32,770 nt of DNA from IMG/VR virus record IMGVR_UViG_2913192161_000005, positions 1-32,770 of that record. One strand, given 5' to 3'. Within the stretch, counting starts at the first letter, position 1, and each line of letters starts with the position of its first letter. Below the pieces are notes generated by a model. The model was not told the origin of the DNA, made no database searches, and saw nothing but the letters and a program-made list of their open reading frames with translations. The translations under genes were made by a program, and so were the position numbers. This document shows positions 3,355 to 8,426 of the stretch, piece by piece. This stretch comes from a virus. Taxonomy: Duplodnaviria > Heunggongvirae > Uroviricota > Caudoviricetes.

Positions 3355-3626
3355 GTATTCGTATTGAAATTGGCGAACGTTATGTCGTTACCAGTGACAG
3401 CTTTCAGTTTATTCTCCACGAGAAAAAGAGAGCTGAAAGCGGTAAAAACGCCGGTCAGGAATGGCTGGCGGTGGTTGGTTATTACCCGAAATTAAGCCAG
3501 CTCGTTTCCGGCCTGATGCATCACGATATTCTGACCGGAAGCGCAAAGTCTTTTGCTGATTTAAACGCGCAGGTTGAGCAACTCAGCAAGCGTTGTTCAG
3601 AGGCTTTTGGCTCATATGGCCGTTAA
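3351..3626 (+). CDS. Hypothetical protein, 91 aa (P2 orf83 position)
   Basis: ORF 3351..3626 with GGAGA upstream; 3' end overlaps start of A. Confidence 0.5.
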   Translation: MSIRIEIGERYVVTSDSFQFILHEKKRAESGKNAGQEWLAVVGYYPKLSQLVSGLMHHDILTGSAKSFADLNAQVEQLSKRCSEAFGSYGR

Positions 3627-5901
3627 AGCCTCCGGGCGTTTTGTCCCTCCGTCAGCATTTGCCGCAGGCACCGGTAAGACGTTTACCGGTGCTTATGCAT
3701 GGAACGCGCCACGCGAGGCTGTCGGGCGCGAAAGACCCCTTACACGTGACGAGATGCGTCAGGTGCAAGGTGTTTTATCCACGATTAACCGCCTGCCTTA
3801 CTTTTTGCGCTCGCTGTTTACTTCACGCTATGACTACATTCGGCGCAATAAAAGCCCGGTGCACGGGTTTTATTTCCTCACATCCACTTTTCAGCGTCGT
3901 TTATGGCCGCGCATTGAGCGCGTGAATCAGCGCCATGAAATGAATACCGACGCGTCGTTGCTGTTTCTGGCAGAGCGTGACCACTATGCGCGCCTGCCTG
4001 GAATGAATGACAAGGAGCTGAAAAAGTTTGCTGCCCGTATCTCATCGCAGCTTTTCATGATGTATGAGGAACTCTGCGATGCCTGGGTTGATGCACATGG
4101 CGAGAAAGAATCGCTGTTTACGGATGAGGCGCAGGCTCACCTGTATGGTCATGTTGCTGGTGCTGCACGTGCTTTCAATATTTCCCCGCTCTACTGGAAA
4201 AAATACCGTAAAGGGCAGATGACCACGAGGCAGGCATATTCTGCCATTGCCCGCCTGTTTAACGATGAGTGGTGGACTCATCAGCTTAAAGGCCAGCGTA
4301 TGCGCTGGCATGAGGCGTTACTGATTGCTGTCGGGGAGGTCAATAAAGACCGTTCTCCTTATGCCAGTAAACACGCCATTCGTGATGTGCGTGCACGCCG
4401 CCAGGCAAATCTGGAATTTCTTAAATCGTGTGACCTCGAAAACAGGGAAACCGGCGAGCGCATCGACCTTATCAGTAAGGTGATGGGCAGTATTTCTAAT
4501 CCAGAAATTCGCCGGATGGAGCTGATGAACACCATCGCCGGAATTGAGCGTTACGCCGCCGCAGAGGGTGATGTGGGGATGTTTATCACGCTGACCGCGC
4601 CGTCAAAGTATCACCCGACACGTCAGGTCGGAAAAGGCGAAAGTAAAACCGTCCAGCTTAATCACGGCTGGAACCATGAGGCATTTAATCCAAAGGATGC
4701 GCAGCGTTATCTCTGCCGTATCTGGAGCCTGATGCGCACGGCATTCAAAGATAATGATTTACAGGCCTACGGTTTGCGTGTCGTTGAGCCACACCACGAC
4801 GGAACGCCGCACTGGCATATGATGCTTTTTTGTAATCCACGCCAGCGTAACCAGATTATCGAAATCATGCGTCGCTATGCGCTCAAAGAGGATGGCGACG
4901 AAAGAGGAGCCGCGCGAAACCGTTTTCAGGCGAAACACCTTAACCGGGGCGGTGCTGCGGGGTATATCGCGAAATACATCTCAAAAAATATCGACGGCTA
5001 TGCACTGGATGGTCAGCTCGATAATGATACCGGCAGACCGCTGAAAGACACTGCCGCGGCTGTTACCGCATGGGCGTCAACGTGGCGCATCCCGCAATTT
5101 AAAACGGTTGGTCTGCCGACAATGGGGGCTTACCGTGAACTACGCAAATTGCCTCGCGGCGTCAGCATTGCTGATGAGTTTGACGAGCGCGTCGAGGCTG
5201 CACGCGCCGCTGCAGACAGTGGTGATTTTGCGTTGTATATCAGCGCGCAGGGCGGGGCAAATGTCCCGCGCGATTGTCAGACTGTCAGGGTCGCCCGTAG
5301 CCCGTCGGATGACGTTAACGAGTACGAGGAAGAAGTCGAGAGAGTGGTCGGCATTTACGCGCCGCATCTCGGCGCGCGTCATATTCATATCACCAGAACG
5401 ACGGACTGGCGCATTGTGCCGAAAGTGCCGGTCGTTGAGCCTTTGACTTTAAAAAGCGGCATCGCCGCGCCTCGGAGTCCTGTCAATAACTGTGGAAAGC
5501 TCACCGGTGGTGATACTTCGTTACCGGCTCCCACACCTTCTGAACACGCCGCAGCAGTGCTTAATCTGGTTGATGATGGTGTTATCGAATGGAATGACCC
5601 GGAGGTCGTGAGGGCGCTCAGGGGCGCATTAAAACACGACCTGAGAACACCAAACCGTCAGCAAAGAAACGGAAGCCCGTTAAAACCACATGAAATTGCA
5701 CCATCGGCCAGACTTACCCGGTCGGAAAGAATGCAAATTACCCGTATCCGCGTTGACCTTGCTCAGAAGGGTATCAGGCCGCAGCGATGGGAGCTTGAGG
5801 CGCTGGCGCGTGGCGCGACCGTAAATTATGACGGGAAAAAATTCACGTATCCGGTCGCTGATGAGTGGCCGGGATTCTCAACAGTAATGGAGTGGAGATG
5901 A
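3616..5901 (+). CDS. A: Rolling-circle replication initiator A (P2 gpA), 761 aa
   Basis: ORF track 3574..5901 (TTG); ATG at 3616 gives MAVKASGRFVPPSAFAAGTGK..., matching my recollection of the P2 gpA N-terminus, and gives the 761-aa length I recall for P2 A. Contains HWHMMLF and the catalytic-type YIAKYISKN tyrosine motif. Confidence 0.93.
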   Translation: MAVKASGRFVPPSAFAAGTGKTFTGAYAWNAPREAVGRERPLTRDEMRQVQGVLSTINRLPYFLRSLFTSRYDYIRRNKSPVHGFYFLTSTFQRRLWPRIERVNQRHEMNTDASLLFLAERDHYARLPGMNDKELKKFAARISSQLFMMYEELCDAWVDAHGEKESLFTDEAQAHLYGHVAGAARAFNISPLYWKKYRKGQMTTRQAYSAIARLFNDEWWTHQLKGQRMRWHEALLIAVGEVNKDRSPYASKHAIRDVRARRQANLEFLKSCDLENRETGERIDLISKVMGSISNPEIRRMELMNTIAGIERYAAAEGDVGMFITLTAPSKYHPTRQVGKGESKTVQLNHGWNHEAFNPKDAQRYLCRIWSLMRTAFKDNDLQAYGLRVVEPHHDGTPHWHMMLFCNPRQRNQIIEIMRRYALKEDGDERGAARNRFQAKHLNRGGAAGYIAKYISKNIDGYALDGQLDNDTGRPLKDTAAAVTAWASTWRIPQFKTVGLPTMGAYRELRKLPRGVSIADEFDERVEAARAAADSGDFALYISAQGGANVPRDCQTVRVARSPSDDVNEYEEEVERVVGIYAPHLGARHIHITRTTDWRIVPKVPVVEPLTLKSGIAAPRSPVNNCGKLTGGDTSLPAPTPSEHAAAVLNLVDDGVIEWNDPEVVRALRGALKHDLRTPNRQQRNGSPLKPHEIAPSARLTRSERMQITRIRVDLAQKGIRPQRWELEALARGATVNYDGKKFTYPVADEWPGFSTVMEWR

Positions 5902-6353
5902 TGGCAAAAATTCACGAGGTAAAGCTGCACGCAAAATATTTCGACCTTGTGCTGGAAGGAAAGAAACGCGCAGAGTTTCGGAAAAATGACCGTAATTATG
6001 AGCACGGGGACACGTTGATTTTGCATGAATGGGGGCAGGGTGTGTATACGGGGCGAAAGGTTGAAGCCCGGATAACAGATGTTACTGACCTGTCAGACTG
6101 GCTGGAAGATTATGTCTTGCTAAGTATTGAGCTGCTTAATACAGGCGCATATGAGATTGTGAACTGGAAAGAACTTAGTGAGCGTGGTCTGGTATTCAGA
6201 ATTAATCATGAAATTATGCATCAGCTCGGCCTTGCTGTTATGTATGAACCAGAGACGGGGATGTCTGGCGGGGCAATGGTTGCCACGGATGGAGCATGGA
6301 ACTATTCAGATGAACAGATGGAGCGTGCACAGCAAAACGGGTGGCTTGGATAA
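5898..6353 (+). CDS. DUF3850/ASCH-like protein with C-terminal extension, about 151 aa (P2 orf91 position)
   Basis: In-frame ATG at 5898/5901 within ORF 5865..6353, overlapping A stop. N-terminal MAKIHEVKLHAKYFDLVLEGKKRAEFRKNDRNYEHGDTLILHEW fits the DUF3850 (ASCH-like) pattern as I recall it. Confidence 0.65.
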   Translation: MMAKIHEVKLHAKYFDLVLEGKKRAEFRKNDRNYEHGDTLILHEWGQGVYTGRKVEARITDVTDLSDWLEDYVLLSIELLNTGAYEIVNWKELSERGLVFRINHEIMHQLGLAVMYEPETGMSGGAMVATDGAWNYSDEQMERAQQNGWLG

Positions 6354-6559
6354 TGCACAGAATACCAGGCGAGATACCGCACCATAAAACTAAAAATATC
6401 AAGCTGATGGCTATTGTTCAGCGTTTACAGCGGATTATGGTCAACGAAAATCTGACGCCCGATGAGCTGGTCGGGTGTGCCGAAATAGTCCGGGATAATT
6501 ACGGGCGGTTTAATCATATCGGTCAATCAAGAGTTACGCCACCACCACGCAGACGATAG
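6353..6559 (+). CDS. Small hypothetical protein, 68 aa
   Basis: ATG at 6353 overlapping the upstream stop (TAATG) within ORF 6341..6559. No recognisable motif; stop is 3 bp before repeat copy 1. Confidence 0.35.
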   Translation: MHRIPGEIPHHKTKNIKLMAIVQRLQRIMVNENLTPDELVGCAEIVRDNYGRFNHIGQSRVTPPPRRR

Positions 6560-6561
6560 AG

Positions 6562-6630
6562 AACGCCGCCAGTCGTGAAACTTGTTTTCAGGGCTGGCGG
6601 GGTTGAACAACGAGCGAAGCGAGGCGTTAG
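6562..6630. repeat. 69-bp structured direct repeat, copy 1
   Basis: aacgccgccagtcgtgaaacttgttttcagggctggcggggttgaacaacgagcgaagcgaggcgttag. Roughly 62 of 69 positions identical to copy 2. Internal 15-position hairpin (ccgccag...ctggcgg) and outer complementary ends aacgcc/ggcgtt. Confidence 0.7.
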
Positions 6631-6782
6631 TTGACAGACATATTTTTACTGCGTTGGTGCCGGTTTTTGACGGTTGAAAGGAGTTAGGTTGGAGAGCTAA
6701 CAACTTACAAATATTCAAAAGTAAGCATCCTGTTGCTAACATGAGGTCGATTTTTTATGTGGATGATGCAAAAAGGATAGCT

Positions 6783-7514
6783 ATGGATACTATAATCGCT
6801 TTTCTATCACTCGCTTTTTTCGTTGCTTTCTTCATCGGGTTAATCAAGCCATCACTGGTGCGAATGCCAAACCGCAAACGTGCAAGTGCGGTTTATCTCG
6901 GAGGAGGTTTTGTATTGAGCATAATTGGTTCAATACTCTATCCAACAGAAAAAAGCCAGCCAGTTGCCAAAACTGAAACATCAACCGTTGCAGAACACAA
7001 AGTCCAAAAAACATTCGAATATGGTGAAAAAACACTCAAGGAATATCGGAACGAGTCAAAGAAAACACGACACGATATTGTGAATAGTTACATTGATTTT
7101 AAGGAAGTGCCAGTCACCGCATCAGATGCATTTTATGCCTGCATGAGTGAGTATACATTTACCAAAGATGATGAGTTGAAACTCGGTGATGTTCTTGGGT
7201 GGTGCTTTAATGATTATGAAAATGCCCCGGATTCACTAAACAATAAAATCAATCTTGATACATTTCAGAGTAATTTTAGTGGTTGGGATGGTTCTTATCG
7301 TCCATTGGAAAAACTAATTAAAGATAATATGAACGATGATTCATCTTATAAACATGTGTCAACGGTATATCATTTGGTTTTGAATAAAGACCCGCACGCC
7401 ATTGTGAAAACCACGTTTCGCGGCACTAATGCTTATGGTGGAGTGGTAAAGCAGACCGTAGCGGCGCGCGTCAACGTGCGAACGGGTGAGGTCGATTCGA
7501 TACTCGACAATTAA
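6783..7514 (+). CDS. Cargo membrane protein, two N-terminal TM helices plus about 170-aa soluble domain, 243 aa
   Basis: ORF track 6741..7514; ATG at 6783 has AAGGA upstream and is preferred. Hydrophobic stretches IIAFLSLAFFVAFFIGLI and AVYLGGGFVLSIIGSILY. AT-rich; no P2 backbone counterpart recognised. Confidence 0.6.
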   Translation: MDTIIAFLSLAFFVAFFIGLIKPSLVRMPNRKRASAVYLGGGFVLSIIGSILYPTEKSQPVAKTETSTVAEHKVQKTFEYGEKTLKEYRNESKKTRHDIVNSYIDFKEVPVTASDAFYACMSEYTFTKDDELKLGDVLGWCFNDYENAPDSLNNKINLDTFQSNFSGWDGSYRPLEKLIKDNMNDDSSYKHVSTVYHLVLNKDPHAIVKTTFRGTNAYGGVVKQTVAARVNVRTGEVDSILDN

Positions 7515-7528
7515 ACAATATAGTGACA

Positions 7529-7597
7529 AACGCCGCCAGTACTGAAACTTGTTTTCAGTGCTGGCGGGGTTAAACAACGAGCCACGCGAGGCGTTAG
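7529..7597. repeat. 69-bp structured direct repeat, copy 2
   Basis: aacgccgccagtactgaaacttgttttcagtgctggcggggttaaacaacgagccacgcgaggcgttag. Starts 15 bp after the stop of the 6783..7514 gene; hairpin ccgccagtactgaaa-cttg-ttttcagtgctggcgg at 7533..7567. Confidence 0.7.
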
Positions 7598-7621: not shown

Positions 7622-8284
7622 ATGCTTTGGAAAGTGATTACATTTGTACTTGTCGGTGTTTGTATTTTTGTTCTCGGCTTATGGCTAGGTTCTATTCAGG
7701 CTGAATGGTCGAAACCAGAGCATAAAGATGCTGTTGCTTATTTAACTATGATAGGCGGATGGGTCTCAGGAATTGCAACATCAATAGCAGTAATTGTTTC
7801 ACTGTATGCGACATATCAATCATCACAAAATAATATTGAAAAATTAGCTTTATTCTATAAGCCTTACCCGAGCGATAATAATGAAAATTACTGTGCAAAT
7901 GTTGAAGTGAAGAATATGCGGAGTGTTTCGGCGCATATACAAGAGTTTTGTTTGGAAATTAGTGGGGTAGATGGTCACATCAATATAAACAAACTAAAAG
8001 CTAATGGGCTACGAATCCCGTATTCTTTATGCCAAATAGGCGAAGTATGGGAGTTTGCTTTTTATCCTGCTGCAAGTCAGAAAAATATGAAGTTCTATCA
8101 TGAACTGAGTGTTAATGGGAGTCCAACTTTCCGAAGTGGTTTCTTTGTGGTTAAAACATCAATGAAGCAATACAAACTAAGGATACCTAAAGTGTTGTTG
8201 AGAATGATGAAAGCTAACTATGAAAAACAAATAAAAATACGGGAGATGTATAAGGAAATGCATGGTAAAGATATGGATATATAA
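7622..8284 (+). CDS. Cargo membrane protein, two N-terminal TM helices plus about 150-aa soluble domain, 220 aa
   Basis: ORF 7622..8284 with GAGG upstream. Hydrophobic stretches VITFVLVGVCIFVLGLWLGSI and VAYLTMIGGWVSGIATSIAVIVSLYA. Strongly AT-rich. Confidence 0.6.
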   Translation: MLWKVITFVLVGVCIFVLGLWLGSIQAEWSKPEHKDAVAYLTMIGGWVSGIATSIAVIVSLYATYQSSQNNIEKLALFYKPYPSDNNENYCANVEVKNMRSVSAHIQEFCLEISGVDGHININKLKANGLRIPYSLCQIGEVWEFAFYPAASQKNMKFYHELSVNGSPTFRSGFFVVKTSMKQYKLRIPKVLLRMMKANYEKQIKIREMYKEMHGKDMDI

Positions 8285-8407
8285 GACGCATTAAATAGCA
8301 TCAAATTGCATGGTTTTTCCTCCCCTGCAGTGAGTGAGCGCCACCAGTGCTGGCGCGTCTCCGACGTGTTTGTGCAACTGCATTAAAACCGACCCATGAA
8401 GCGGGCG

Positions 8408-8426
8408 GGCGAGGCGGGGAAAGCAC
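8408..8426. other. cos cohesive-end site (P2-type 19-nt cos)
   Basis: ggcgaggcggggaaagcac matches the P2/P4 cohesive-end sequence as I recall it. Located in the GC-rich intergenic region immediately beyond the 3' end of Q, as in P2. Confidence 0.65.

Follow-up and report, generated by a model that had tools for sequence, protein, structure and literature searches.

A strand-specific intergenic hairpin with a conserved tail in the cargo hotspot of P2-like phages, with relatives at plasmid origins

We analyzed a 32,770-nt stretch of viral DNA (IMG/VR record IMGVR_UViG_2913192161_000005, positions 1 to 32,770; Caudoviricetes), called the window here. The window is a P2-like prophage. It contains two copies (E1 and E2) of a 69-nt element (E) that consists of a hairpin and a 26-nt tail. 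The element is a real functional module. Its stem drifts in sequence, its tail is conserved, its orientation is fixed, and the unit that folds is the single + strand. Our tentative reading, which we rate as somewhat short of probable, is that the element works in sense RNA, between cistrons or at their 3' flank, and also provides portable homology for the swapping of cargo genes. We infer that RNA is the active form and that the activity is processing or stabilization.

Structure and conservation of the element

The two copies are direct repeats of 69 nt each and lie where a sequence-only reading of the window had placed them (Table 1). They are identical at 63 of 69 positions (91%) and differ at 6; the earlier estimate was about 62. 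That reading had also described a hairpin of about 15 pairs with a 4-nt loop. The hairpin is present, but its size was off, and it has 19 pairs and a 5-nt loop. The minimum free energy of the RNA was -30.6 kcal/mol for E1 and -34.9 kcal/mol for E2 (z = -3.4 and -6.1, respectively, against dinucleotide shuffles). With DNA parameters, the values were -18.6 and -21.9 kcal/mol (z = -3.9 and -5.6). Of the six differences between E1 and E2, two restore pairing. One changes a C-G pair to A-U, and the other replaces a G.G mismatch with C-G.

Two alignments were used for covariation. Alignment A1 contained 71 distinct copies that were picked by the hairpin apex alone, with the tail free to vary. The other contained 90 diverse copies and was guided by a model, which favors the structure; a MAFFT-based set pointed the same way. 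Each retrieval fixed one half of the element, and the invariance of the fixed half is therefore partly a product of construction.

Folding and covariation bore out the conservation of the hairpin in homologs through compensatory change. Eight pairs showed compensatory change in the 71 close copies, and none of 500 shuffles reached the observed value. Among the 90 diverse copies, 14 of the 19 hairpin pairs had changed on both sides, and 298 cells were compensated (80±16 in shuffles). The covariation score of this set was 0.40, compared with 0.18 for shuffles and no more than 0.11 for slid partners. The AAC/GUU base and three apical A-U pairs are nearly invariant, and the middle of the stem is free to change.

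The G.U pairs numbered 163 and the A.C pairs 10. The + strand gave the stabler fold in 71 of 71 copies, by a mean of 9.2 kcal/mol. The excess of G.U over A.C and the stabler + fold indicate selection on one strand only. The covariance model scored about 95 bits on the + strand and about 30 bits on the - strand.

The sequence-only reading had closed the element at its outer ends with AACGCC...GGCGTT. This closure did not hold up. The complementarity exists, but it showed no compensatory change, and 14 unpaired cases were found when position 4 varied (71 copies). Position 4 covaries with the G directly 3' of the hairpin (CG 9, GC 4, GU 2, UG 2, UA 1), so the 5' AAC pairs with the proximal GTT. 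The stem has 19 or 20 pairs with one or two mismatches and is selected in the sense strand. Its length is at the lower limit for an RNase III hairpin (about two turns). Chi-like GCTGGCGG and parS-like half-sites in the stem were rejected as candidates; their bases are not kept in the wider family.

The tail, GAACAACGAGCnnnGCGAGGCGTTAG, is 26 nt long. Agreement was at least 90% in most columns of the 71 apex-selected copies. This set and the plasmid copies found by BLAST support conservation of the tail independently. A change of GA to UC in 12 copies gives Watson-Crick pairs in a candidate five-pair mini-hairpin, CGAGC-nnn-GCGAG, which has tandem G.A pairs. Folding programs drew another tail helix, AACG/CGTT. 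No compensatory change was seen in this helix, and the 12 TCGC variants disrupt it. The mini-hairpin fits these variants better and is a candidate fold for the tail, not a proven one. Positions 6611 to 6617 of E1 are an exact match to the heptamer GCGAAGC, a DNA mini-hairpin of exceptional stability. Other copies vary freely in the central triplet, and the match is therefore probably incidental.

The tail was also considered as a coding sequence and as a promoter, and both were rejected. Conservation extends to all three codon positions while a single triplet varies freely, and TGA...TAG closes one of the frames; coding sequences do not behave in this way. Promoter-like matches in the tail and upstream of the plasmid copies were no commoner than in shuffles and were not conserved between backbones.

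Decayed copies were found at L007 (7105-7170), L035 (7159-7224), and L063 (8626-8690) and also at L038 and L047 (L numbers are our labels for loci). Those at L007, L035, and L063 either have lost the hairpin apex through an internal deletion or have a shortened stem beside an intact tail, so the hairpin and the tail can be lost separately.

Distribution, gene context, and cargo junctions

BLASTN of the 69-mer, a check that the sequence-only reading had suggested, revealed a family of elements in phages, prophages, and some plasmids and not a mere local duplication. The 69-mer matched 74 phage records at 87 to 100% identity. Among these were P2-like coliphages, WPhi, 186, PSP3, Erwinia EtG, and Yersinia and Klebsiella phages. 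It was present in 522 of 5,426 complete E. coli genomes, in one or two places each. Canonical P2 does not carry it. About 41 of 80 prophages with a gene A 98 to 99% identical to that of the window carry the element, always on the strand of gene A.

A scan with the hairpin pattern, covering one genome per species, found full-length copies in Enterobacterales only. The genera were Citrobacter, Kluyvera, Enterobacter, Trabulsiella, Scandinavium, Erwinia, Symbiopectobacterium, Rosenbergiella, and Escherichia, and the remaining matches were chance matches to the pattern only. A scan of metagenomes with the tail pattern gave 120 loci. Their hairpin sequences were very different yet always paired. 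The contexts examined were P2-like prophages or plasmids. With one or two copies per carrying genome, these contexts rule out a common intergenic palindromic unit of the host, and repetitive extragenic palindromes (REPs) and bacterial interspersed mosaic elements (BIMEs) were rejected on the same counts.

Rfam gave no match in the window at gathering thresholds and nothing real at permissive thresholds. The sole subthreshold match (6562-6655) was to Giardia RNase MRP, at 20 bits against a gathering threshold of 60. It is spurious and driven by the hairpin ends. The element is unmarked in the GenBank annotations of 186, P2, and PSP3. The searched hotspot surveys and papers on P2-like diversity and on plasmid pPrY2001 do not mention the hairpin, and the surveys mention no hairpin or repeat at the hotspot border; older work on the P2 variable region was outside this search, and an earlier description is possible. 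A literature search by sequence strings returned unrelated primers only.

The element follows genes closely. An open reading frame (ORF) on the same strand stops 1 to 25 nt upstream in about 97 of 107 distinct phage contexts. In the window, the sequence-only reading was right that each copy begins just after a stop codon, and the spacing is 14 nt for E2. The upstream ORFs belong to three unrelated main families and three minor ones. The orf92-like family was the commonest (51 of 102 contexts), with mostly 2 nt from stop to element. The Orf97-like family (32 contexts) had 8 to 14 nt, and the DinI/TumB-like family (14 contexts) had mostly 2 nt. Distant P2-like phages were found via the tail; their gene A is 30 to 45% identical and their portal about 60%. 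The upstream gene in these phages is nearly always DinI/TumB-like. The distance from stop to tail was 42 nt in 56 of their 93 contexts and 41 to 43 nt in 75 of the 93.

Start codons often follow the tail. An ORF starts within 12 nt 3' of the tail in 57 of 206 contexts, mostly with an ATG 2 to 4 nt beyond. This ATG position puts the GAGG of the tail 8 to 9 nt upstream, which is the Shine-Dalgarno distance. Forty of 58 post-tail ORFs from a follow-up clustering belong to one small-protein family, phrog_2100. The family is conserved, its members have 74 to 93 aa, and it is often the last gene before cos in distant P2-like phages (e.g., L325, 5375-5600, and 39 more contexts).

In phage 186, the element lies 8 nt after the orf97 stop and before t95b, the annotated terminator of the SOS (p95) transcript. 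The element is thus part of this transcript, in the sense orientation. PSP3 has the order tumB-E-orf37(orf92-like)-E, and the same tandem pattern was found in several contigs. The order in the window, orf92-E-orf97-E, was also found in L006, L018, L032, and L061.

The association with cargo boundaries that the sequence-only reading had raised is real and sharp. The flanks reassort, and the breakpoints lie at the two ends of the element. Over all phage contexts, 8 left-flank clusters and 30 right-flank clusters formed 40 combinations, and one right flank (the 186-type terminator and cos) was joined to four kinds of left flank. Pairs with just the left flank in common (n = 524) diverge at the first base past the element in 222 cases and within 6 nt (position 70 to 75) in 373. 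Pairs that share only the right flank (n = 153) diverge no more than 6 nt before the first base of the element in 122 cases. Only one pair has homology that ends inside the hairpin. These junctions mark the element as a portable homology patch for cargo exchange, whichever molecule (RNA or DNA) is active.

Tail positions 51 to 56 were linked somewhat more to the right flank than to the left, too weakly to place crossovers inside the element. This gradient agrees with exchange at a shared homology patch and does not prove crossovers inside the element. We infer that the exchange is homologous rather than site-specific.

The element is not the only border. Of the 80 close relatives, about 42 lose homology to the window where gene A ends and about a dozen lose it within orf91. 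In 9 relatives homology stops at 6630-6634 (the end of E1), in 9 where orf97 ends, and in 2 at 7597 (the end of E2). With several recurrent ends, the element is one border among several. The segment from orf97 to E2 is 78% identical to its counterpart in 186-like Yersinia phages. The similarity begins only at the ribosome-binding site of orf97, so the element defines the right end of this cassette and not its left end.

A separate motif, TTACAATTAAACCTAT, was found 10 to 25 nt 3' of the element in three different cargo contexts (L002, 5085-5100; L029, about 6535-6550; L033, about 6575-6590). The carriers are the P2 SIAC10 isolate and two IMG/VR prophages. The motif may be a common cargo promoter or operator.

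The features of the window are listed in Table 1. The ori and cos were placed by identity with P2, and this puts both copies of the element within the variable hotspot that stretches from gene A to cos. The right edge of the hotspot is at about 8341-8379, where the relatives regain homology. Gene sizes and gene order elsewhere in the window are those of the P2 late region. A 137-bp segment of gene A (window positions 5570 to 5706) is repeated at 87% identity directly downstream of gene A in L019 (6124-6259), L022, L039, L051, and L058.

Table 1. Positions of the element copies and neighboring features in the window
Feature	Position	Strand	Basis or remark
E1, full element copy 1	6562..6630	+	Direct repeat; covariance model R1, 94.2 bits on + and 27.7 bits on -
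E1 hairpin 1, AAC-closed 19-pair stem, 5-nt loop	6562..6604	+	RNA and DNA folds, covariation
E1 conserved tail GAACAACGAGCGAAGCGAGGCGTTAG	6605..6630	+	Candidate mini-hairpin at 6611-6623 (CGAGC-GAA-GCGAG, tandem G.A); GAGG at 6621-6624
E2, element copy 2	7529..7597	+	Hairpin 7529-7571, tail 7572-7597; R1, 96.3 bits on + and 31.7 bits on -
P2-type phage integrase	1-996	-	P2-like surroundings
Replication gene A (gpA, HUH nickase)	3574..5901	+	P2-like surroundings
ori motif GCGCCTCGGAGTCCTGTCAATAAC	5467-5490	+ (strand of E1)	Identity with annotated P2 nick site; about 1.1 kb upstream of E1
orf91-like gene (DUF3850/ASCH)	5865..6353	+	P2-like surroundings
orf92-like small gene, 72 codons, phrog_11386	6341..6559	+	Stop 2 nt before E1
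Homolog of phage 186 Orf97, phrog_3403	6741..7514	+	Cassette bracketed by E1 and E2
220-aa cargo ORF, phrog_16957, ATG at 7622	7622..8284	+	Starts 24 nt after E2; own GAGG
Equivalent of P2 right cohesive end (cos)	about 8408-8426		Identity with P2
Portal gene	from 8595	- (other strand)	P2-like surroundings

The phage-type element was also found by BLAST in prophages integrated in plasmids, such as an IncC plasmid. A divergent form was retrieved by BLAST from four plasmid families. The element is the only sequence common to these plasmid backbones. The plasmid-type tail was not found in viral contigs.

The first family contains pPrY2001-like conjugative plasmids of Providencia, Proteus, and relatives (79 records). 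Their stem has a different sequence (GCGAGAGACA/TGTCTCTCGC) and is again paired throughout, and the apex and tail are kept except for two single-base insertions. The element is followed at 17 nt by a DnaA-box-like site and at about 130 nt by six 22-bp iterons, together with an AT-rich tract and a Rep3 gene. The second family is IncX8 (pHI4320-like). It has the same order with different iterons and divergent upstream genes. The third is p1_000369 of Providencia huaxiensis. It has the same order with a third iteron sequence and, again, divergent upstream genes. The fourth contains 26-kb MOBC plasmids of Klebsiella and Enterobacter. Their element lies 10 nt after an ORF of a partition operon, and short repeats located downstream of a convergent repA are about 500 nt away.

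The element, the DnaA-box-like site, and an AT-rich tract with the motif TTTCTTTCTTTT were found in this order in three plasmid backbones, L237 (4186-4317), L362 (3779-3911), and L365 (2718-2849), upstream of unrelated 22-bp iterons. The "enhancer" side of the origin looks modular, exchangeable, and independent of Rep/iteron specificity. A second motif, CCGTGAGCG(T/A)AGCGAACCAA, was found near the element in two plasmid families (L362, 3347-3368; L363, 2847-2868). It has the same GAGCGnAGCGA core as the tail.

Possible functions

We favor a role in sense RNA; an RNA stability or processing element was among the options of the sequence-only reading, as was a protein-binding site. In P2-like phages, the element would belong to rightward accessory genes (DinI/TumB-like, orf92-like, and Orf97-like) and be transcribed with them. 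The hairpin would form in the mRNA once the ribosome has moved off the stop codon and would act as a processing site, a block to 3' exonucleases, or both, and the upstream message would thereby be uncoupled from the downstream cargo. The tail would give the next cistron a standard leader that includes a Shine-Dalgarno-like GAGG. As the sole stretch common to otherwise unrelated neighbors, the element would also be a homology patch for recombinational cargo exchange. The duplication in the window would then be an orf97-E cassette placed behind orf92-E. A role in RNA accounts best for the phage data because the sense orientation is constant, the spacing to the stop is fixed, starts follow the tail, the element is included in the p95 transcript of 186, and tandems have one copy per gene.

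Several observations weigh against this role. Phage 186 has a normal terminator 24 nt 3' of the element, so the hairpin is not needed there as a 3' end. The element is missing from canonical P2 and from about half of the close P2-like relatives. The close relatives L003 (8060-8100), L004, L037, and L045 have a classical Rho-independent terminator after the Orf97 gene and not the element. The element and the classical terminator are alternative 3' ends of the same Orf97 gene. The strongly conserved single-stranded tail also exceeds the needs of a stabilizer hairpin.

The plasmid copies fit least well. A clear homolog lies beside a DnaA box, an AT-rich tract, and iterons in at least three backbones, two of which have divergent upstream genes. 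The element of pPrY2001 is preceded by the bona fide intrinsic terminator of the stbAB operon. With divergent upstream genes or a preceding terminator, a role in the 3' untranslated region of an mRNA fails to explain these copies. No conserved promoter was visible at the plasmid copies, and their tails carry a 1-nt insertion that destroys the GAGG.

These copies bring in a second explanation, absent from the options of the sequence-only reading, which we consider possible though doubtful. The element may be an initiation signal in single-stranded DNA, with the folded + strand helping to load helicase or primase or to prime complementary-strand synthesis. In the phage, it would act on the strand displaced after gpA nicks at ori; in the plasmids, it would act on the strand exposed beside the unwinding region. 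The closeness to ORFs would reflect only compact genomes, and the GAGG would be co-opted. The pPrY2001-like plasmids, IncX8, and p1_000369 share the order of element, DnaA-box-like site, AT-rich tract, six 22-bp iterons whose sequence differs in each, and Rep3, and the element is the only sequence they have in common. These three origins may share ancestry, however, and are then not independent. The MOBC family also has the element about 500 nt from the short repeats downstream of repA. The plasmid element is outside any obvious transcription unit. As we read the maps of all four families, extension of a primer placed on the hairpin-forming strand would lead away from the origin.

The phage data are divided on a DNA signal. 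The element and the nick motif are on the same strand, with the element 1.1 to 1.8 kb to the 3' side (1.1 kb for E1). The ori motif resembles the plus-strand origin of phiX174, both ending in AATAAC. The hairpin is strand-specific. It is stable with DNA parameters, and G.T is the best-tolerated DNA mismatch. Phage 186 is reported to need host DnaA and DnaC, and G4-type single-strand initiation (ssi) signals are common to a phage and plasmids. On the other side, the phages without the element show it to be dispensable, and two copies often stand in tandem, each after its own gene. Neither the fixed spacing to the stop codon nor the start codons directly after the tail suit a DNA signal. A DNA signal would fit the phage if gpA nicks the + strand, as the direction of the ori motif suggests. 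A conserved CTG primase start is missing from the tail, and known PriA sites need no conserved sequence. The element was also considered as a secondary gpA nick site and rejected. P2 and 186 have the ori core TCGGAGTnCTGTCAATAAC in common. The only match of the element to ori is the 7-nt CGCCTCG, which is on the opposite strand, outside this core, and in a part of ori that 186 does not share.

A wider form of the DNA explanation is unlikely in our view. It holds that the element is a new accessory signal of single-strand origins, common to P2-like phages and R6K-like iteron plasmids and read by a conserved host replication factor. Since all carriers retain it, the element would also be a universal crossover patch for defense and other cargo at the P2 hotspot, and possibly between phages and plasmids.

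A transcription barrier is very unlikely. The element would be a factor-dependent or weak terminator, or an insulator, that stops transcription of the early or SOS operon ahead of the cargo or protects an origin from read-through. It does lie at the ends of rightward operons, a classical terminator replaces it after orf97 in relatives, and after tumB elsewhere it holds the position of the partial terminator t95a, which follows tum in 186. An intrinsic terminator was rejected outright. The sequence-only reading had noted that neither copy is followed by a U-run and had concluded that they are not classical terminators. It was correct on both; GGGGUUGAACAACG, not a U-tract, follows the stem, and a terminator scan listed neither copy. 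Other forms of barrier are opposed by the same missing U-tract and by the mapped 186 terminator downstream of the element. ORFs that need read-through start 2 to 25 nt after the element, and two plasmid families have no co-directional gene upstream.

We give little credence to a site-specific recombination site of the integron attC kind, in which a recombinase would move gene-element cassettes via the folded hairpin. The sequence-only reading had listed recombination sites that delimit a cassette among its options, and in this attC-like form the option is largely refuted. The arrays are cassette-like (tumB-E-orf92-E in PSP3 and orf92-E-orf97-E in the window), the modules have sharp ends, the hairpin base is AAC...GTT, and GTTGAAC fits the R' consensus GTTRRRY. 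The inverse core fails. The 5' side (GAGAAAC, ACAAAAC, or GATAAAC) does not fit RYYYAAC, and the purine-rich GAGA, ACAA, and GATA do not pair with GAAC. The breakpoints fail as well, with homology between relatives ending past the tail (position 70) and not at G|TT (positions 41 to 43). The P2-type integrase is the only recombinase identified among the subset of window ORFs that was scanned. The tail is conserved in sequence in a way that attC is not, and in 186 the orf97 cassette lacks an element on its left side.

A selfish element like a miniature inverted-repeat transposable element (MITE), or a small-RNA gene of its own, is scarcely credible: the element is a discrete 69-nt unit with sharp ends, short terminal complementarity, and many contexts, but it has one orientation, one locus type, one or two copies per genome, no duplicated target site or flanking bases, no conserved promoter or terminator of its own, and no Rfam match. 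Nothing supports a free-standing small RNA gene; the sequence-only reading had allowed for a duplicated small structured RNA.

Relation to known systems and significance

The element is familiar as a kind, namely, a conserved strand-specific intergenic hairpin module. The closest parallels to a role in RNA are the RNase III sites of T7 early mRNA and the lambda sib hairpin, where cleavage leaves a hairpin that protects the upstream message. These are also imperfect hairpins of about 20 bp between or after cistrons. They are sense-specific, have no U-tract, and adjoin the next ribosome-binding region. Unlike the element, they have no conserved single-stranded tail and do not occur at plasmid origins; cleavage of the element is only predicted. 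REP/BIME sequences and 3' stabilizer hairpins are likewise strand-specific intergenic palindromes just past stop codons. REPs differ in having hundreds of chromosomal copies, both orientations, and a different consensus.

The ssi signals (phiX174 type, G4 type of R1/R100/F, and ssiA/ssiB of RSF1010) are the parallels in DNA. They share with the element a hairpin, strand and orientation specificity, a place near origins, occurrence in phages and plasmids, and individual dispensability. The element differs in lying inside operons between ORFs and in being often duplicated, and the likeness is one of description. Integron attC sites resemble the element in their position at the 3' end of a gene, cassette-like arrays, folded single strand, AAC...GTT base, and variable stem. 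They differ in that the element has its breakpoints at the tail end and not at G|TT, does not meet the inverse core, has a conserved tail, and has no IntI identified.

Boundary or "linker" sequences have been proposed for mosaic lambdoid phages in the Susskind-Botstein model and in comparisons of the HK620 type. Like the element, they are short conserved stretches at module junctions. They join unrelated neighbors, and the flanks reassort on both sides. Unlike them, the element is structured and strand-selected, has an evident function beyond homology, and also occurs at plasmid origins. New to us is the combination of a drifting stem and a conserved tail with a place at the hotspot edge, base-precise reassortment, and relatives at plasmid origins.

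The hotspot between gene A and cos of P2-like phages is among the best-studied reservoirs of antiphage systems, and recent surveys stress how fast its cargo is swapped. The element gives many of these swaps a left anchor that is defined by sequence. The mechanism of exchange thereby becomes directly testable. The element is also a structure supported by covariation that is absent from Rfam and that links the ends of phage operons with plasmid origins. This link points to a shared host factor, which may be a nuclease, a primosome component, or another protein. Identification of that factor would account for a feature conserved in two large groups of mobile elements.

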